Shown here piece after piece: positions 1-42,018 of a DNA stretch of 64,000 nucleotides. Origin of the DNA: Escherichia phage vB_VIPECOOM01; sequence record OQ721909; one strand, written 5' to 3'. The notes beneath the pieces were generated by a model. The model was not told the DNA's origin and searched no databases. It saw only the letters and a program-made list of their open reading frames with translations. Numbering within the stretch: position 1 is the first letter of the stretch; each line of letters begins with the position of its first letter. A program made the position numbers and the translations under genes.

Positions 1-474
<474 letters not shown>

Positions 475-2751: not shown

Positions 2752-3345
2752 TTATTTCAGAGAATTAATATATTCCTGGACATCAGCAGAAGTGGTTTCA
2801 ACCCCAGAAATATTACCGTTAAAGGTTTCAACTCGAGCAAGAGTATCTTCAATATCAACCTTAGTTAGCGCTGCGATTTCAACTACATCATCGGCAGTAC
2901 TAATTCCAAGGGCATTTGCCGCACGAGTTTCACGAATATATTCCAATTTAACTGCAAGTTCTTGGCGAGCATCATCTAACTCAACTACTTTCTTGGCGAT
3001 TTCAATTCGCATTTCAGCATAACCGTCAGCTTTAGTAGTCAACTGCTCAGCTGTTCGACGATATAGCAAACCGAGTTTAGCGTGCATTGTTACATCTTGA
3101 CCTTCGGAAAGAAGTTTACGAATTTCACGCTCTTTTGATTCGGCCTGTCGATTCTTTTCGACAATAAGTTCACGAATACGTTTTTCTTCATTAATAGATT
3201 TAACAGAAGCAGTTTTTAGATCTTTAATTTTATCAAGCAGTTTTGCTGCCGCAGCAGTATACTGTTCTTCAACAGATAGATTTTTAGCCATAGCAGAACC
3301 AAGTTTAGTGCGAATAAACTCAACAATTTTCTTCAGTGTGTTCAT
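2752..3345 (-). CDS. Coiled-coil protein, possibly PspA/IM30-like (e.6 position)
   Basis: 197 aa, charged heptad-like repeats throughout ([34 protein letters not shown]); family assignment is a guess. Confidence 0.5.
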
Positions 3346-3388
3346 AGTATTTCCTTAGGTTAATTGAGATTTAAAATCTGTGGAAGAA

Positions 3389-3919
3389 TTATATCCCATT
3401 ATTTGAGAGATGTAAACTATTTTTAATTTTACAAATTCGTTCAGCTTCATCGATAGCAGCATTAATAATGCTTTTAGCTATAGGAGTACTAATACTAGTA
3501 GCTTTTACACTTAACACGATTTCTTTATCTTTACCAGGCCAACCCCATGATTTTTCACCGTGAGTGCCTTTAATTACAGCAGACACCTCAAGTGAGCGTC
3601 CATTATCATATGTTTTTACATTAACAACCCAAGGGTCACTTTTCTCAATCGGTTTCTCAACCGGTTTATCCCAGTAAATATTAAGAATGCGTGGGACATC
3701 AAATTTGGCAGGACAAATCTTAACCGTAAGACCTTCGCTTTCTAGCCAATTAATAAGAGGGCGTTCATACAGGCGACGATGTGGGCTTGGGATTCGACAA
3801 GCCTTATGTCCGTTGCTTGCGGCTTCACTAAGCTGTTCTAATACCTGCTTTTGCATTATTGATAAGATACCATCAAAAGATTTTTCGGAAATTTCATTCA
3901 GTTCGGTATAAAGAGACAT
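3389..3919 (-). CDS. Hypothetical protein (e.7 position)
   Basis: 176 aa, SD gaggaa before ATG, preceded by a PeSL-type promoter. Confidence 0.6.
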   Translation of the reverse strand: MSLYTELNEISEKSFDGILSIMQKQVLEQLSEAASNGHKACRIPSPHRRLYERPLINWLESEGLTVKICPAKFDVPRILNIYWDKPVEKPIEKSDPWVVNVKTYDNGRSLEVSAVIKGTHGEKSWGWPGKDKEIVLSVKATSISTPIAKSIINAAIDEAERICKIKNSLHLSNNGI

Positions 3920-4282: not shown

Positions 4283-4312
4283 ATAGTACCATGGAAGAAC
4301 TGGGATGTAAAC
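4283..4312 (-). promoter_or_regulatory. Sigma70-like early promoter
   Basis: Minus strand GTTTAC -35 (plus 4307-4312), 18-nt spacer, TACTAT -10; leader shares CTATCAACTACTG with the promoter at 9376-9414. Confidence 0.45.
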
Positions 4313-4445: not shown

Positions 4446-4470
4446 AAAAAGCCCTATCATTTAGATAGGG
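4446..4470 (-). terminator. Rho-independent terminator after 4479-5042 gene
   Basis: Stem ccctatc/gataggg with loop attta, followed on the minus strand by CTTTTTGG. Confidence 0.6.
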
Positions 4471-4478
4471 ATTTAAAA

Positions 4479-5042
4479 TTATTTATCTAGTTTAGTTATT
4501 ATAGCTTCTGCGGCAGCTTTTAGCTTAGATGCGGTGTTAATACGATTTTTAATTTCAGTATACGCATCGCCAAGAACATCAAGGCTATCAGAATAAACAC
4601 TTACACTATTGCGTTCGCTATTTGAAATAGAACCTTTAGTTTTACGATCAAAATCGGTGTACACGTCTTGAAGATCACGGGCTGCCTTCTTTGCATCATC
4701 CAATGCGTCAAGAGCTTTATTCAAAGCATTAACGTATTTTTTAGTGTCGAACATATTCTTAGAAATTTTAACAGGTGCGCGTTCAGGAGTAGCTAATGCA
4801 GATTTAGGAACCTGAGCGCCAGATGCCAATTTCTTAGAAATTTTGAAAAACGCTTTATTGAATTTATTTTCTTGACTCATCGTAAAAGAACTATTATCGA
4901 TGTTGTACATTTCAATAGCTTTAGCTTTCCACTTAAGAAAATCGCCGCGGTCTTTTGGGTCCAAGTGGAAGAATACTTTAGTAAGATCTGCTTCAGATGG
5001 TAATTTTGCTGCTTCGGTTAAAAATTCGGCATAGGTTTTCAT
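4479..5042 (-). CDS. Internal-protein-like protein with N-terminal capsid-targeting sequence
   Basis: N-terminus MKTYAEFLTEAA matches the T4 internal protein CTS pattern (MKTYQEFIAE) plus an L-x-E prohead protease site; lysine-rich body; bracketed by terminators. Confidence 0.6.
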   Translation of the reverse strand: MKTYAEFLTEAAKLPSEADLTKVFFHLDPKDRGDFLKWKAKAIEMYNIDNSSFTMSQENKFNKAFFKISKKLASGAQVPKSALATPERAPVKISKNMFDTKKYVNALNKALDALDDAKKAARDLQDVYTDFDRKTKGSISNSERNSVSVYSDSLDVLGDAYTEIKNRINTASKLKAAAEAIITKLDK

Positions 5043-5131
5043 TTAAAATCCTTGAAATGATTTATCAGTTGGTTATTAATTATTTATTACTTTGCTATTA
5101 TCTGCAGCAGCATTCTCTATGTGATTCAAAC

Positions 5132-5160
5132 TAAAAAGCCCCGACCGAAAGGTCGGGGCT
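5132..5160 (-). terminator. Rho-independent terminator
   Basis: Stem agccccgacc/ggtcggggct with GAAA loop, followed by UUUUU on the minus strand. Confidence 0.75.
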
Positions 5161-5167
5161 AAGAATG

Positions 5168-5641
5168 TTATTTGATTTGTTTAGCAGACCAAATGCGGTC
5201 TTTAATAATTTTTTGGATGTCTTCAACATACTCTAGGTCATGAGCATGTGGGTTATCTTTGAAACTATAAGCACGAGCTAGTTTTTGGCCTTCAGTTTTG
5301 ATTACTAAAAGCTCTTTAAGGATAGCTTCATATTTAGCGATAATTCCTTTAACAATATTTTTTTCTTGTGCAACTTTAGGATCTGCTTTAGGAGCAGGTT
5401 TACCCGAAGCCTTTGCAAAAGCAGCGCCAGTAGCAACTAAACTTTTCCAGGCCATACTAACTGCATTTCCTGTAAATCCTTCTGCTTTCATGTCGCGGGC
5501 AAATTGGAATCGTGATTCGTCAGAAGCATCTTTATAGGAATATTTACCCGCTGCAATGGCTGCTTTTGCGACAGCTTGAATTTCGGTGCTAGATGCTTCA
5601 TTTAACACCGCTTCATTTAAAAATTGAGCATATGATTTCAT
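5168..5641 (-). CDS. Internal-protein-like protein with N-terminal capsid-targeting sequence
   Basis: N-terminus MKSYAQFLNEAV (CTS-like, L-N-E cleavage motif); own late promoter upstream and terminator downstream. Confidence 0.6.
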   Translation of the reverse strand: MKSYAQFLNEAVLNEASSTEIQAVAKAAIAAGKYSYKDASDESRFQFARDMKAEGFTGNAVSMAWKSLVATGAAFAKASGKPAPKADPKVAQEKNIVKGIIAKYEAILKELLVIKTEGQKLARAYSFKDNPHAHDLEYVEDIQKIIKDRIWSAKQIK

Positions 5642-5680
5642 CTTATTTCCTGTTTTAATTCGTGATTTAATATACTACTA

Positions 5681-5688
5681 TATTTATA
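5681..5688 (-). promoter_or_regulatory. T4 late promoter TATAAATA (minus strand)
   Basis: Plus tatttata at 5681-5688, about 40 nt upstream of the 5641 start. Confidence 0.6.
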
Positions 5689-5690
5689 CT

Positions 5691-5718
5691 AAAAAGCCCC
5701 AACCTTTCGGTCGGGGCT
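5691..5718 (-). terminator. Rho-independent terminator closing the tRNA/small-RNA transcription unit
   Basis: Stem agccccaacc/ggtcggggct (one G-U), loop TTTC, then UUUUU on minus strand. Confidence 0.7.
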
Positions 5719-5725
5719 AAGCCTT

Positions 5726-6030
5726 GCGGCAACCTTGTCGGGGTTCCACCTGCTAAGGCAAGTGTTTGTACGAAACGCCGGGATTCGAACCCGGTTATTA
5801 AGCAGTTGACGCTACTCAATATTTTTAAAAGGCCATATCTCGACCATATCCGAACGTTCCGTCAAAAACGCTACTCGGCTTACGGCAAAGATATTTCCTC
5901 GAATCGATAATTCGGTGCGCCGTTTCTGCTGTGATGTAAGGGGATATTAACAAATCGTAAAGATTTATTAAGACCAGTCCTTACGCAGGGAACATCAGTC
6001 CGACGACTTACCGGTAGCGACCCGGTTTCT
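5726..6030 (-). ncRNA. ORF-free structured region, candidate stable small RNA(s) co-transcribed with the tRNAs
   Basis: No ORF of 60 aa or more on either strand over about 300 bp despite dense coding elsewhere; tRNA-like T-arm CCGGG-TTCGAAT-CCCGG (5778-5794) with pairing acceptor-like strands CGGAACG/CGTTTCG (5855-5861 / 5771-5777) but no canonical D or anticodon arm; sits between tRNA operon and terminator. T4 has species 1/2 stable RNAs near its tRNAs. Confidence 0.35.
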
Positions 6031-6380
6031 TAATATTCTTTTAAAGCATCAATTTGTTCACGGCGTTTACGCCATAAATCAATTGCTTCATACGCAGATT
6101 CAGCATTTCGAATTGGACGGCATTTATATAAAGACTTATGATTTTGATATTGTGTAGATAACGGAATTTTATCTAAAAGGTCTTTACGTTCAAAATATTC
6201 GTAACCATCTAAACCAAATGAACGATTTTTGAGAAATTGCCAATGACCGTATTCGTTTTCGACATAAACATAATCCGCGTGTTGATAAAGCAAATTAATT
6301 ACACGTTCAGAAATAACAGTGTCATTGTGATTAAAATAAAATGTTAAATCATGAACTACTAAATAAACATTACCTTTCAT
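6030..6380 (-). CDS. Hypothetical protein embedded in the tRNA operon
   Basis: 116 aa, SD gaggaaaat before ATG, starts 17 nt after tRNA-Arg on same strand. Confidence 0.55.
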   Translation of the reverse strand: MKGNVYLVVHDLTFYFNHNDTVISERVINLLYQHADYVYVENEYGHWQFLKNRSFGLDGYEYFERKDLLDKIPLSTQYQNHKSLYKCRPIRNAESAYEAIDLWRKRREQIDALKEY

Positions 6381-6929: not shown

Positions 6930-7412
6930 TTATTTTATGTAATATTTATTTAAAAACTTTCTAGCTTGAGTATGGCTAACATTTATAGCGTTTGCATAAT
7001 TTTTAATAAAACCTCGTTCATCCATATTAAAATTTTCTAATATTTTTAATCGTCTAATTATCTCATCTTGGCTTAAGGTACTTGCATTATTTTTAGAAAT
7101 TTTTTCTAAAGACTGCACTGAGTGTTTTCGACCATTAAAATTAAAATTTTTAGGTTTTGGAGGAAATCTATCATTTAGTCTCGCATCTTTTGTATTTTGA
7201 TTATTAGTTGCGCAATATATGTTATTTAATGAGTATGGTCCTTTATCACCAAAACGACACATACAGTATTCATGACCCTTTCTTCCACGCTTATCATAAT
7301 TTCCCGTTGATTTCCACCAATTCAACCACTCATCAAAAGTTAAATTCCATTCAATGTTTCTACGTATAGCAGAATTCCGCTGAGAAATATATTTTGCATA
7401 ATCTTCTTTCAT
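6930..7412 (-). mobile_element. Free-standing HNH-like (His-Me finger) homing endonuclease gene inserted between tRNA genes
   Basis: 160 aa; EWNLTFDEW plus CxC and GDKGPYSLNNIYCATNNQN motif resembling degenerate phage HNH nucleases; basic C-terminal HTH-like tail; interrupts the tRNA cluster. Confidence 0.5.
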
Positions 7413-9414: not shown

Positions 9415-9648
9415 TTATTTTTTACGAAAAATTGATTTATTTTCTGCTGCCCATTTTTCAATAACTGCAGCAGGACCAGTAACAACAATTTTATCACCGT
9501 AATCTTCTGCGGCGAGTTGACCGAAATTATCTAATGCATCACGAAGAACTCCATGAGGCATTTCACCCATTTTATCTTTCTTGCCGGTGTAAATAAACTC
9601 AACTTTTACATCAGAAGATTCAGCGATAAACTCTTTGAAAGTTTTCAT
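9415..9648 (-). CDS. Internal protein I-like small protein with capsid-targeting sequence
   Basis: From second Met: MKTFKEFIAESS (CTS-like, I-A-E cleavage motif); 77 aa; position beside 57B matches T4 ipI. Confidence 0.6.
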   Translation of the reverse strand: MKTFKEFIAESSDVKVEFIYTGKKDKMGEMPHGVLRDALDNFGQLAAEDYGDKIVVTGPAAVIEKWAAENKSIFRKK

Positions 9649-9677
9649 TTTAGTTTCCATTCGATTGTTTTGTTTTG

Positions 9678-9715
9678 ATAGGGTAATAATATCACAACTA
9701 AAACCCTATGTAAAC
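9678..9715 (-). promoter_or_regulatory. PeSL-type early promoter with stem-loop
   Basis: Minus GTTTAC (plus 9710-9715), 17-nt spacer, TATTAT -10; stem atagggt/accctat. Confidence 0.55.
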
Positions 9716-9727
9716 AACTTTGTGAAA

Positions 9728-9985
9728 TTATTTTAAATCTTCTAATCGTTTCTTCATCTTAGAACCATTTTTAGCAATTTCTCCTGCATCGGAGCATAAT
9801 GCTAAAAGTGCTTTAACTTTCGTTTGGTCTCCTTTAAAAGATGAAGGATCTACTGCAGCAGCAAGTTCTTTAATACGAGAGAAAAGACGCTCAGCTTCAG
9901 CTAAAGCCATTCCAAGCTTTACTTCCATACCGTGGGAAGATTCAGTGATAGTAGTTTTTGTAGCAAACTCTTTGAAAGTTTTCAT
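9728..9985 (-). CDS. Internal-protein-like small protein with capsid-targeting sequence (paralog of 9415-9648)
   Basis: N-terminus MKTFKEFATKTTITES (CTS-like, I-T-E motif); 85 aa; SD aggaaaataaaATG. Confidence 0.6.
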   Translation of the reverse strand: MKTFKEFATKTTITESSHGMEVKLGMALAEAERLFSRIKELAAAVDPSSFKGDQTKVKALLALCSDAGEIAKNGSKMKKRLEDLK

Positions 9986-38531: not shown

Positions 38532-38956
38532 TGCTTCTGATCCCTGAAACTCATGAATTAGTTCTCGAGAATGTCGAAGCACTTATTCCTGAAGCACAGG
38601 GTCGCTTTGACGAATTGTCTTCTGCTTTAAATAAAGACGATATAAATACAATTATCGAGAATATGCTTGATGATGAAACTGATTTAGCAATTGCATTAGC
38701 TTCTATTAATGAAGATATGCCGCTAAATGAATTCATTGTTAAGCATGTTTCAGCTCGTGGTGAAATTACACGTACTAAAGACCGCAAAACGCGCGAACGT
38801 AATGCATTTCAAACCACTGGGCTGTCTAAAGCAAAACGTAGACAAATTGCTCGCAAAGCTACCAAAACGAAGATTGCCAATCCAGCAGGTCAATCTCGTG
38901 CTCAGCGTAAGCGTAAAAAAGCTCTTAAACGCCGTAAAGCATTAGGATTAAGCTAA
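38531..38956 (+). CDS. 68: Prohead core protein gp68
   Basis: 141 aa, basic C-terminus, size and order. Confidence 0.8.
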
Positions 38957-39594
38957 TGAATGAACCCCAATTACTAATTGAAACTTGGGGTCAACCTGGC
39001 GAAATTATTGATGGTGTGCCAATGCTTGAATCCCACGATGGAAAAGACTTAGGTTTAAAACCTGGTTTATACATCGAAGGAATATTCATGCAAGCGGAAG
39101 TCGTCAATAGAAATAAACGTCTTTATCCAAAACGCATATTAGAAAAAGCGGTAAAAGACTATATCAATGAGCAAGTTTTAACTAAACAAGCTCTCGGAGA
39201 ATTAAATCATCCTCCACGCGCTAATGTTGACCCGATGCAAGCCGCTATCATTATAGAAGATATGTGGTGGAAAGGAAATGACGTATACGGACGAGCTCGT
39301 GTTATTGAAGGTGACCATGGTCCTGGAGATAAATTAGCAGCTAATATTCGTGCCGGATGGATTCCAGGAGTTTCTTCTCGTGGATTAGGTTCATTGACTG
39401 ACACAAATAAAGGTTATCGTATCGTAAACGAAGGATTCAAATTAACTGTAGGTGTTGATGCAGTATGGGGTCCAAGTGCTCCAGATGCATGGGTAACTCC
39501 TAAGGAAATTACCGAATCACAGACGGCGGAAGCCGATACAAGTGCCGATGACGCCTATATGGCTCTCGCAGAGGCCATGAAAAAAGCGTTATAA
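38956..39594 (+). CDS. 21: Prohead core protease gp21
   Basis: 212 aa, size and order. Confidence 0.85.
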   Translation: MNEPQLLIETWGQPGEIIDGVPMLESHDGKDLGLKPGLYIEGIFMQAEVVNRNKRLYPKRILEKAVKDYINEQVLTKQALGELNHPPRANVDPMQAAIIIEDMWWKGNDVYGRARVIEGDHGPGDKLAANIRAGWIPGVSSRGLGSLTDTNKGYRIVNEGFKLTVGVDAVWGPSAPDAWVTPKEITESQTAEADTSADDAYMALAEAMKKAL

Positions 39595-39597
39595 ATA
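39590..39597 (+). promoter_or_regulatory. Late promoter TATAAATA upstream of gene 22
   Basis: Exact motif overlapping the gene 21 stop. Confidence 0.55.
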
Positions 39598-39624
39598 TTA
39601 TTATCTAAACAACAGGACTACAAA

Positions 39625-40434
39625 ATGCTTAAAGAACAACTGATTGCTGAAGCGCAAAAAATTGATGCTTCCGTTGCTCTTGATAGTATTTTCGAATCAG
39701 TTAATATTTCTCCGGAAGCAAAAGAAACTTTCGGCACTGTATTCGAAGCTACCGTCAAGCAGCACGCCGTTAAATTAGCTGAATCTCATATCGCTAAAAT
39801 TGCTGAAAAAGCAGAAGAAGAAGTAGAAAAAAATAAAGAAGAAGCCGAAGAAAAAGCTGAGAAGAAAATCGCTGAGCAAGCTTCTAAATTCATTGACCAT
39901 CTTGCGAAAGAATGGCTCGCTGAAAATAAATTAGCAGTTGATAAAGGCATCAAAGCCGAACTGTTTGAATCCATGCTTGGTGGATTAAAAGAGCTCTTTG
40001 TTGAACACAACGTTGTTGTTCCAGAAGAATCAGTTGATGTTGTGGCTGAAATGGAAGAAGAGCTGCAAGAACATAAAGAAGAATCAGCTCGTCTGTTCGA
40101 AGAACTCAATAAGCGTGACGCATATATCAATTATGTGCAGCGTGAAGTGGCATTGAGCGAAAGTACTAAAGATCTGACTGAGTCTCAAAAAGAAAAAGTC
40201 TCTGCTCTGGTCGAAGGTATGGATTATTCAGATGAATTCTCAAATAAATTGAGTGCCATCGTAGAAATGGTGAAGAAGTCTAATAAAGATGAAAGCACTA
40301 TTACTGAGGGTATAAATACTCCTGATACTGAAGCAGCCGGACTGAATTTCGTCACTGAAGCTGTAGAAGATAAAGCTGCACCTGGTGCAGAAGATATTGT
40401 AAGTGTATATGCGAAAGTCGCATCTCGTTTCTAA
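39625..40434 (+). CDS. 22: Prohead core scaffold protein gp22
   Basis: 269 aa, glutamate/lysine-rich helical protein, size and order. Confidence 0.85.
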   Translation: MLKEQLIAEAQKIDASVALDSIFESVNISPEAKETFGTVFEATVKQHAVKLAESHIAKIAEKAEEEVEKNKEEAEEKAEKKIAEQASKFIDHLAKEWLAENKLAVDKGIKAELFESMLGGLKELFVEHNVVVPEESVDVVAEMEEELQEHKEESARLFEELNKRDAYINYVQREVALSESTKDLTESQKEKVSALVEGMDYSDEFSNKLSAIVEMVKKSNKDESTITEGINTPDTEAAGLNFVTEAVEDKAAPGAEDIVSVYAKVASRF

Positions 40435-40452
40435 TTTTAAAGGTTAACACAA

Positions 40453-42018
40453 ATGACTATCAAAACTAAAGCTGAACTTTTGAACAAATGGAAGCCATTA
40501 CTGGAAGGTGAAGGTTTACCGGAAATTGCTAATAGCAAACAAGCGATTATCGCTAAAATCTTTGAAAACCAGGAAAAAGATTTCCAGACAGCTCCAGAGT
40601 ACAAAGACGAAAAAATCGCTCAGGCGTTCGGTTCTTTCTTAACAGAAGCTGAAATCGGTGGTGACCACGGTTACAATGCTACTAACATCGCTGCAGGTCA
40701 GACTTCTGGCGCAGTAACTCAGATTGGCCCAGCTGTTATGGGTATGGTACGTCGTGCTATTCCTAACCTGATTGCTTTCGATATTTGCGGTGTTCAGCCG
40801 ATGAACAGCCCGACCGGTCAGGTATTCGCACTGCGCGCAGTATATGGTAAAGACCCAATCGCTGCCGGCGCTAAAGAAGCATTCCACCCAATGTATGGTC
40901 CAGATGCAATGTTCTCTGGTCAGGGTGCTGCTAAGAAATTCGCTGCTTTGAAAGCAAGTGATACTCTTGAAGTTGGAACTATTTACACCCACTTCTTCCA
41001 GGACACCGGTACTGTATATCTGCAAGCTACAGAAGCTAAACAAATTGATTCCACTGCATCTGACGCAGCTAAATTAGATGCTGAAATTAAGAAACAAATG
41101 GAAGCTGGTGTACTGGTAGAAATCGCTGAAGGTATGGCTACTTCTATCGCTGAACTTCAGGAAGGTTTCAACGGTTCTACCGATAACCCATGGAATGAAA
41201 TGGGCTTCCGTATCGATAAACAAGTTATCGAAGCTAAATCTCGTCAGCTGAAAGCTGCTTACTCTATCGAATTAGCACAAGACCTCCGCGCTGTTCACGG
41301 TATGGATGCTGATGCTGAACTGTCTGGTATTCTGGCTACCGAAATCATGCTGGAAATCAACCGCGAAGTTGTTGATTGGATTAACTACTCAGCTCAGGTT
41401 GGTAAATCTGGTATGACCCTGACTCCGGGTTCTAAAGCTGGTGTATTTGACTTCCAGGATCCGATTGATATTCGTGGTGCTCGCTGGGCGGGTGAATCCT
41501 TTAAAGCTCTGTTGTTCCAGATTGACAAAGAAGCAGTTGAAATTGCTCGTCAGACCGGTCGCGGTGAAGGTAACTTCATTATCGCTTCCCGTAACGTAGT
41601 TAACGTTCTGGCTTCAGTTGATACTGGCATTTCTTATGCTGCACAGGGTCTGGCTACCGGCTTTAACACTGATACTACCAAGTCAGTATTTGCGGGTGTT
41701 CTGGGTGGTAAATACCGTGTATATATCGACCAGTATGCTAAACAGGATTATTTCACTGTAGGTTATAAAGGTCCGAACGAAATGGATGCTGGTATTTACT
41801 ATGCTCCATATGTAGCTCTAACTCCGCTGCGTGGTTCCGATCCGAAGAACTTCCAACCAGTAATGGGATTCAAAACTCGTTACGGTATCGGTATCAACCC
41901 ATTTGCAGAATCCGCTGCTCAGGCTCCGGCTTCTCGCATCCAGAGCGGTATGCCTTCTATTCTGAATAGCCTTGGTAAAAACGCTTACTTTAGACGTGTA
42001 TATGTTAAAGGTATCTAA
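40453..42018 (+). CDS. 23: Major capsid protein gp23
   Basis: 521 aa; N-terminal propeptide with LTEAEIGG protease site; sequence recognised as near-identical to T4 gp23. Confidence 0.95.
   Translation: MTIKTKAELLNKWKPLLEGEGLPEIANSKQAIIAKIFENQEKDFQTAPEYKDEKIAQAFGSFLTEAEIGGDHGYNATNIAAGQTSGAVTQIGPAVMGMVRRAIPNLIAFDICGVQPMNSPTGQVFALRAVYGKDPIAAGAKEAFHPMYGPDAMFSGQGAAKKFAALKASDTLEVGTIYTHFFQDTGTVYLQATEAKQIDSTASDAAKLDAEIKKQMEAGVLVEIAEGMATSIAELQEGFNGSTDNPWNEMGFRIDKQVIEAKSRQLKAAYSIELAQDLRAVHGMDADAELSGILATEIMLEINREVVDWINYSAQVGKSGMTLTPGSKAGVFDFQDPIDIRGARWAGESFKALLFQIDKEAVEIARQTGRGEGNFIIASRNVVNVLASVDTGISYAAQGLATGFNTDTTKSVFAGVLGGKYRVYIDQYAKQDYFTVGYKGPNEMDAGIYYAPYVALTPLRGSDPKNFQPVMGFKTRYGIGINPFAESAAQAPASRIQSGMPSILNSLGKNAYFRRVYVKGI

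Follow-up and report, generated by a model that had tools for sequence, protein, structure and literature searches.

Internal proteins of the T4 type are synthesised late in infection, enter the core of the prohead, are trimmed by the prohead protease gp21, and are packaged and injected together with the phage DNA. In T4 itself, IPI, IPII and IPIII begin with a 10-residue capsid targeting sequence (CTS; MKTYQEFIAE in IPII and IPIII) that ends in L/I-x-E and is followed by Ala. In IPIII, these ten residues are enough for packaging, foreign proteins included; residues 4 and 7 govern targeting, residues 8 and 10 govern processing, and gp21 cleaves after the Glu of L/I-x-E (PMC9026906). Polymorphic, CTS-bearing internal proteins of the T-even phages have been known since 1994 (Repoila et al. 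1994, as cited in PMC12373910); at least ten internal proteins have been named, and T4 is said to have two ip loci (PMC12373910). Ip1, Ip2 and Ip3 are inhibitors, each of a different GmrSD enzyme (PMC12373910), and IPIII has been identified as a specific GmrSD inhibitor (PMC9391042). Here we describe two adjacent open reading frames (ORFs), ORF-B and ORF-A, located between rnaC and e.8 in a stretch of 64,000 nucleotides from Escherichia phage vB_VIPECOOM01 (OQ721909; the whole stretch is referred to below as the window), which probably encode two further internal proteins of this type.

Two other described systems resemble parts of this locus. Promoter-early stem-loop (PeSL) elements, which represent a shuffling logic described for T4-like phages by Arbiol 2010 and Comeau 2014 (PMC2839356; PMC4122927), set an orphan ORF between conserved stem-loop terminators that are rich in G/C and next to a promoter, so as to form an insulated module, and their indel breakpoints lie inside the stem-loop motif. 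DarA, DarB and Hdf of phage P1, as summarised in PMC12810830, are head-loaded anti-restriction proteins that are delivered with the DNA. Their likeness to ORF-A and ORF-B is functional only, for the P1 proteins are unrelated in sequence, are loaded by another mechanism and are much larger.

Genes and targeting sequences of ORF-A and ORF-B

A sequence-only reading of the window had proposed the two ORFs as additional CTS-bearing proteins, and the coordinates, strand and N-termini that it gave were reproduced here (Table 1). Both ORFs show an end-to-end profile match to PHROG 2280, a family with no assigned function, and both are preceded by Shine-Dalgarno sequences. In comparisons with orthologs, the ratio of nonsynonymous to synonymous substitution rates (dN/dS) is 0.04-0.10 for ORF-B and 0.03-0.26 for ORF-A, and both genes evolve under purifying selection. 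Relatives of ORF-B occur in 510 phage records from several genera and those of ORF-A in 163 records, and many of the phages that carry them have been proposed for therapy. All of the database records inspected annotate these genes as hypothetical, and this missing functional annotation is the only point in favour of the view that the ORFs are open by chance, within an AT-rich insert between genes. The probability of that view is negligible, as dN/dS is far under 1, the PHROG matches are full-length, Shine-Dalgarno sequences are present, peptides of an ORF-B ortholog have been detected (see below), and protein-level homologues exist in other genera; we therefore rejected it.

The first ten codons of ORF-B (nucleotides 5641-5612) and of ORF-A (5042-5013) encode the T4-type CTS that had been claimed for them. 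Tyr4, Phe7, Leu8 and Glu10, the key residues, are kept in both proteins, and the (L/I)-x-E prohead protease site at the CTS end is likewise present, as L8-T-E10 in ORF-A and L8-N-E10 in ORF-B, each followed by Ala. In a six-frame translation of the 64 kb, the pattern MK[TS][YF].[EQ]F[LIV].E has three matches, at 5641, 5042 and 9648 (the last being Ip6), and all three coincide with ORF starts. The motif at the starts of ORF-A and ORF-B is not a chance occurrence. ORF-B has a second L-N-E, which ends at residue 15, five residues past the first. Cleavage after Glu10 would leave a mature ORF-A of 19.7 kDa with an isoelectric point (pI) of 9.46 and a mature ORF-B of 16.0 kDa with a pI of 9.40, both predicted to be Lys-rich with a net charge of +6 to +8; the pI values of T4 IPII* and IPIII* are 9.56 and 9.65. 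Peptides that span the CTS (residues 1-11) would mark an uncut precursor, namely TYAEFLTEAAK for ORF-A, and SYAQFLNEAVLNEASSTEIQAVAK. For ORF-B and its ortholog g140 (see below), the predicted mature N-terminal peptides are AVLNEASSTEIQAVAK or ASSTEIQAVAK, depending on whether the cut is after Glu10 or Glu15, and the precursor peptide is SYTQFLNEAVLNEASSTEIQAVAK.

Other properties shared with T4 IPI-III are a basic mature product (8-21 kDa among these proteins), variable presence between phages, flanking terminators, and a genome that also encodes gp21 and gp22. T4 IPI-III are non-essential, and the likeness of ORF-A and ORF-B in this respect rests on their absence from T2, T4, T6 and PST. The two proteins also resemble Ip4-Ip7 and other Ip ORFs with a CTS from the T-even phages, named in the records of T2, T6, RB14 and PST, which have the same signal sequence and occur as polymorphic cassettes in hyperplastic regions. 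The differences are in family and position. ORF-A and ORF-B belong to PHROG 2280 whereas the T4-type internal proteins belong to PHROGs 7857, 5341, 3499 and 8111, with no detectable similarity between the mature parts. The named Ips lie at the two classical loci in the records examined, and those of T4 are found beyond gene e or next to 57B, whereas ORF-A and ORF-B lie at a third locus, rnaC-e.8, and have no Ip name in those records.

Virion evidence comes from an ORF-B ortholog. Gene g140 of the Yersinia phage fD1 (phiD1) encodes a protein that is 96.8% identical to ORF-B and has the same CTS, and it was scored as particle-associated in liquid chromatography coupled to tandem mass spectrometry (dataset PXD026812), as were the annotated internal proteins g129 (Ip4) and g146 (IpI-like) of that phage.

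The sequence-only reading also described the two genes as late-promoter/terminator units insulated by strong GNRA or tetraloop terminators, and it placed a late promoter before the upstream gene. An exact TATAAATA octamer does lie upstream of ORF-B at the place indicated. The window holds more copies of this octamer than expected (23 vs 9.2), and the site is conserved in phiD1 and SA21RB, being an annotated late promoter in the latter. For ORF-A, the description has to be modified: in place of the canonical octamer there is the variant AATAAATA, which is conserved as (A/G)ATAAATA in SA21RB, RB14 and RB69, and its function as a promoter is uncertain. A search for a sigma-70 promoter for ORF-A after the hairpin at 5160-5137 gave only a poor 9/12 match. 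All three hairpins are real, and those with GAAA and UUCG loops are strong, but the third, which ends the ORF-A cassette, is a weaker pentaloop hairpin. Nor is the uppermost one (5718-5695) private to ORF-B. It bounds the ORF-B cassette on the upstream side and at the same time ends the tRNA/rnaD/rnaC unit, and it is also found in T4, T2, T6, RB14, RB69 and phiD1; it is the ancestral terminator of the tRNA/rnaC unit. The hairpin at 5160-5137, which ends the ORF-B cassette and begins the ORF-A cassette, repeats the stem of the rnaC hairpin.

Table 1. Coordinates of the two genes, their flanking signals and related features of the window
Feature	Position	Strand	Evidence or remark
ORF-B, 157 aa, N-terminus MKSYAQFLNE	5168..5641	-	ORF translation; phrog_2280 E 7.3e-60
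ORF-A, 187 aa, N-terminus MKTYAEFLTE	4479..5042	-	ORF translation; phrog_2280 E 1.4e-53
Terminator hairpin AGCCCCGACC-GAAA-GGTTGGGGCT + T-run	5695..5718	-	-24.9 kcal/mol, z -4.7
Late promoter TATAAATA of ORF-B, T4-type	5681..5688	-	39 nt before ATG, 2 nt past hairpin T-run
Terminator hairpin AGCCCCGACC-UUCG-GGTCGGGGCT + T-run	5137..5160	-	-21.6 kcal/mol, z -5.4
AATAAATA, late-promoter candidate of ORF-A, one mismatch	5081..5088	-	38 nt before ATG
Terminator hairpin CCCTATC-TAAAT-GATAGGG + T-run, 7-bp stem, pentaloop, end of ORF-A cassette	4452..4470	-	-10.5 kcal/mol, z -2.8
Early-type promoter of e.8, TTTACA-17-TACTAT with TG, downstream limit of the late-gene insert	4283..4311	-	homologous site annotated as T4 early promoter in SA21RB
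ipI locus, two named CTS genes (Ip5 9985-9728, Ip6 9648-9415)	9415..9985	-	names from T6, RB14, PST records
gp21 prohead protease, expected to remove the CTS	38956..39594	+	Peptidase_S77, E 1.5e-111
gp22 scaffolding core protein, destination of CTS-bearing proteins	39625..40434	+	T4_CASP, E 4.7e-90; role from PMC9026906

Beyond the CTS, both mature proteins are predicted to be all-helical. The AlphaFold model of ORF-B (predicted local distance difference test score, pLDDT, 75.5) starts with a small helical N-domain (residues ~18-75), which a Pro/Lys linker (76-87) connects to a helical hairpin (88-154). In the model of ORF-A, a helical N-region (~17-73) is followed by a linker (81-98) that is disordered and contains Pro and Lys, and then by a long helical hairpin (100-186); as its confidence is low (pLDDT 58), its fold matches deserve little weight. 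This predicted two-part, all-helical organization differs from the compact beta-sheet/helix fold of IPI* (PMC3012670). A phmmer search with ORF-A against 1.84 billion representatives found one true distant relative, the metagenomic protein P0027 (31% identity). P0027 has a CTS-like start (MITFNEFLNE) with two L/I-N-E sites (FLNE and MINE), and when aligned to ORF-A it shows the same layout, in which a Pro/Lys linker separates the N-domain from a helical C-terminus. The P0027 gene (Logan contig SRR28624380_555336, 1419-2526) has a 30.3-like gene on its upstream side and, directly downstream, a small ORF for an ART-PolyVal ADP-ribosyltransferase, a genomic context different from that of the rnaC-e.8 locus.

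The ORF-B homologue in the Dhakavirus IME341 has a near-identical C-terminal hairpin and a diverged head domain, and the homologues in Klebsiella and Yersinia phages (P0010, P0011 and P0013) keep the head domain and have an unrelated C-terminus. These alignments suggest that the ORF-B homologues have been domain-shuffled at the Pro/Lys linker. Between ORF-A and ORF-B themselves, BLASTP aligns the CTS alone, and hhalign, with a probability of 28% and then 78.6%, aligns the C-terminal hairpin only. They were thus not accepted as clear paralogs, and homology between them is probable but weak.

Cassette exchange at the rnaC-e.8 locus

To be placed away from the known ip genes was another property ascribed to ORF-A and ORF-B, and the comparison with T4 bears this out: ipII and ipIII of T4 lie beyond gene e, and the T4 rnaC-e.8 interval, 285 bp in length, contains no ORF. 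The interval is likewise empty in T2, T6 and PST. Elsewhere among close relatives the two genes occur singly or as a pair, with ORF-A only in RB14 (RB14ncORF136c) and RB69, ORF-B only in phiD1, and ORF-B followed by ORF-A in the phage studied here, in SA21RB and in ime09-type phages, so that four configurations of the locus (empty, A, B and B+A) were seen. The ORF-B homologue of IME341 is also found at this locus (3001-3465). In RB69 (NC_004928.1, 11429-11991, minus strand), ORF-A is split by a frameshift into RB69ORF149c and RB69ORF148c, so that the gene is a pseudogene there or the reference genome contains a sequencing error.

The junctions of the modules were compared in eight phages, and every one falls exactly after GGGCTTTTT of the terminator hairpin. 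The sequence that follows GGGCTTTTT is of three kinds: ggtatctaggcc in the e.8 flank, (a/g)gTATAAATAtag in the ORF-B leader and agtttgaatcac in the ORF-A leader. Because the junctions are this exact, ORF-A and ORF-B each form a self-contained cassette of leader, ORF and terminator, and the gain and loss of cassettes is explained by recombination in the terminator hairpin. The orphan ORF, the insulated module and the position of the breakpoints inside the stem-loop motif are as in PeSL cassettes; unlike in PeSL, the hairpin is joined to the late TATAAATA promoter (in the case of ORF-B) and not to a strong sigma-70-like early promoter. Since cassettes appear to be swapped at the terminator hairpin, we therefore regard rnaC-e.8 as a third, hypervariable ip locus, which is empty in T2, T4, T6 and PST.

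It is also evident that nucleotide identity between RB69 and the window rises from ~70% in the flanking genes to 91.5% across e.8 and ORF-A. This jump points to a recent exchange between genera.

Several chimeric ORFs related to the region were also seen. One of them (P0025, from metagenome/Logan contigs) fuses residues 97-122 of ORF-A with the C-terminal part of NudE, which implies that e.2-e.8 were deleted; another (P0014) joins a trna.3-like N-terminus to the C-terminus of ORF-B; and P0024, again from metagenome/Logan contigs, is chimeric as well. They indicate frequent deletions across the region.

Proposed packaging and function

We consider it likely, with some reservation, that ORF-A and ORF-B are internal proteins of the T4 type. 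The reading is favoured because the CTS residues are kept, L-x-E is followed by Ala, the products are basic, the genes are variably present, the window also encodes gp21 and gp22, ORF-B has a late promoter, and an ortholog of it was detected in virion preparations. Under this reading, ORF-B would be transcribed late from its own TATAAATA, and ORF-A from the AATAAATA variant or by read-through. The first ten residues would bring each precursor into the prohead, to its gp22 scaffolding core, where gp21 would cut after Glu10 (FLTE-A and FLNE-A) and, in ORF-B, perhaps also after Glu15 (VLNE-A). The basic mature proteins (~19.7 and ~16 kDa) would remain in the head with the DNA and be injected with it. 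Once inside the host, they would most likely neutralise a first-line defence, and our best guess is a modification-dependent nuclease of the GmrSD type. An anti-defence role had already been guessed from sequence, and the guess is now stronger given the GmrSD inhibition demonstrated for Ip1, Ip2 and Ip3, each with a different enzyme; purely by analogy with these proteins it would be the most likely purpose of ORF-A and ORF-B. Both the cassette polymorphism and the lateral transfer are what would be expected of host-range genes.

Several results weigh against this interpretation. Family searches of both ORFs in Pfam, NCBIfam and PADLOC gave no meaningful match, a sequence search of the PDB gave none although IPI* is in the PDB, and fold searches returned only generic helical hairpins, members of the own family and uncharacterised proteins of T4-like phages. 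The sequence-only reading had found nothing recognisable in the protein bodies, and the same can be said after these searches; no similarity of the mature parts to Ip1, Ip2, Ip3 or any anti-defence protein was found. Upstream of ORF-A there is no canonical late promoter, only the AATAAATA variant, and this octamer shows no enrichment in the window (7 copies vs 12.8 expected), so it was rejected as a recognisable class of late promoter. The expert annotators of RB14 named Ip4 and Ip5 and left ORF-A as a plain hypothetical protein. The fD1 particle list that includes g140 also holds DenV, lysozyme e, NudE, e.5, e.6 and 672 host proteins; because of these non-structural and host proteins, the detection of g140 speaks for expression and co-purification and not for specific packaging. 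Moreover, this detection covers the ORF-B ortholog, and the packaging of ORF-A is deduced from its sequence. For both proteins, targeting, cleavage, injection and the anti-defence role are what we infer from the features described above.

The proteins could instead be packaged and processed and yet serve a physical role, neutralising or organising the packed DNA or aiding core or head assembly, as was suggested for IPIII. Their net charge of +6 to +8 and pI of ~9.4-9.5 would suit such a role, as would the predicted long helical hairpins, whose fold resembles neither an enzyme nor an inhibitor. Mutants of IPIII assemble heads more slowly and give a smaller burst, and lysines of internal proteins touch DNA phosphates (PMC9026906; PMC3012670). 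Such a role is nevertheless unlikely: it sits poorly with the presence or absence of whole cassettes among near-identical phages with identical heads and with the recent lateral exchange of ORF-A between genera, and IPIII itself turned out to be a specific inhibitor of GmrSD. Somewhat less probable again is that ORF-A and ORF-B are ordinary late proteins of the cytoplasm, whose CTS-like N-termini derive from shared ancestry or recombination with ip genes and cause no meaningful loading into the head. The sole virion evidence does come from a preparation rich in non-structural proteins, ORF-A has no canonical late promoter, and the records inspected all call the genes hypothetical. This explanation is hard to reconcile with the finding that ten CTS residues of IPIII suffice to package foreign proteins (PMC9026906) and with the retention of the four critical CTS positions in homologues that have diverged strongly elsewhere; in P0027, which is only 31% identical to ORF-A, one would not expect a vestigial tag to persist.

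The internal-protein interpretation can be extended to a wider one, which we put forward tentatively and would not expect to hold in full. In it, rnaC-e.8 would be an unrecognised third ip locus of the Tevenvirinae, whose cargo, a distinct class of two-domain proteins (a helical head domain that varies, then a Pro/Lys linker, then a coiled-coil hairpin), would be reshuffled at the linker, would counter a defence other than the GmrSD enzymes inhibited by Ip1-3, and would spread between genera as late-promoter/stem-loop cassettes, which would make these the counterpart of PeSLs among late genes.

Genome context and significance

The Tequatrovirus Escherichia phage vB_VIPECOOM03 (OQ721911.1) matches the window with 100% identity. 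On the minus strand, the gene order begins with gene 1, 57A and 57B, followed by the CTS genes Ip5 and Ip6 at the classical ipI site. After Ip6 come trna.4, trna.3, trna.2, ten transfer RNA (tRNA) genes, the homologues of rnaD and rnaC, ORF-B and ORF-A, and then e.8 to e.2 and nudE, with gene e cut off at the window's left edge. The homologues of rnaD and rnaC, which are stable RNAs of T4, were placed at ~6032-5769 by alignment to T4; an Rfam scan of this stretch detected tRNAs only, and no Rfam family detects the rnaC and rnaD homologues. Besides Ip5 and Ip6, the phage carries an IpII and an IpIII: the vB_VIPECOOM03 record still has an ipIII-like and an ipII-like gene beyond gene e, to the left of the window. 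The genes for gp21, gp22 and gp23 lie together in the window at 38956-42018.

Other ORFs in the neighbourhood vary between phages as well. A 116-aa ORF at 6030-6380 (minus strand; phrog_3355), between tRNA-Arg and the rnaD homologue, resembles RB69ORF150c and RB51ORF141; it is present in T2 and RB69, missing in T4 and T6, and had no Pfam match. Inside the tRNA cluster, a 160-aa ORF at 6930-7412 (minus strand; phrog_16521), which also had no match in Pfam, is found where T4, T6 and PST have the homing endonuclease gene segB. The position of e.7 holds a 176-aa ORF at 3389-3919 (minus strand; phrog_6869), in T4 e.7 has 111 aa, and this is another replacement in the hyperplastic region. Two listed short ORFs at 5667-5819 and 5825-5953 (minus strand) overlap the rnaC and rnaD homologues (~5769-6032); these ORFs are almost certainly spurious. 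At the left edge of the window, two TATAAATA late-promoter motifs stand in tandem, 13 bp apart, just upstream of gene e (452-472, minus strand).

A full-text literature search with the ORF names, the CTS strings and the proteomes of related phages returned nothing specific to ORF-A or ORF-B, though Repoila et al. (1994) may already mention them, and the supplements of Silas 2025 contain no sequence matching either. The kind of protein is already known, and nothing here should surprise a T4 specialist; what appears to be new is the recognition of both families as candidate Ips and of the third ip locus that they define. Absence from the model phages T2, T4 and T6, together with the hypothetical annotation, is probably why they were overlooked. 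Given the results for Ip1-3, each new CTS-bearing family is a candidate inhibitor and a probe for its host target. The exact, hairpin-bounded junctions offer a clean natural example of the swapping of cargo genes, and ORF-A and ORF-B could help to explain differences in host range among near-identical Tequatroviruses.

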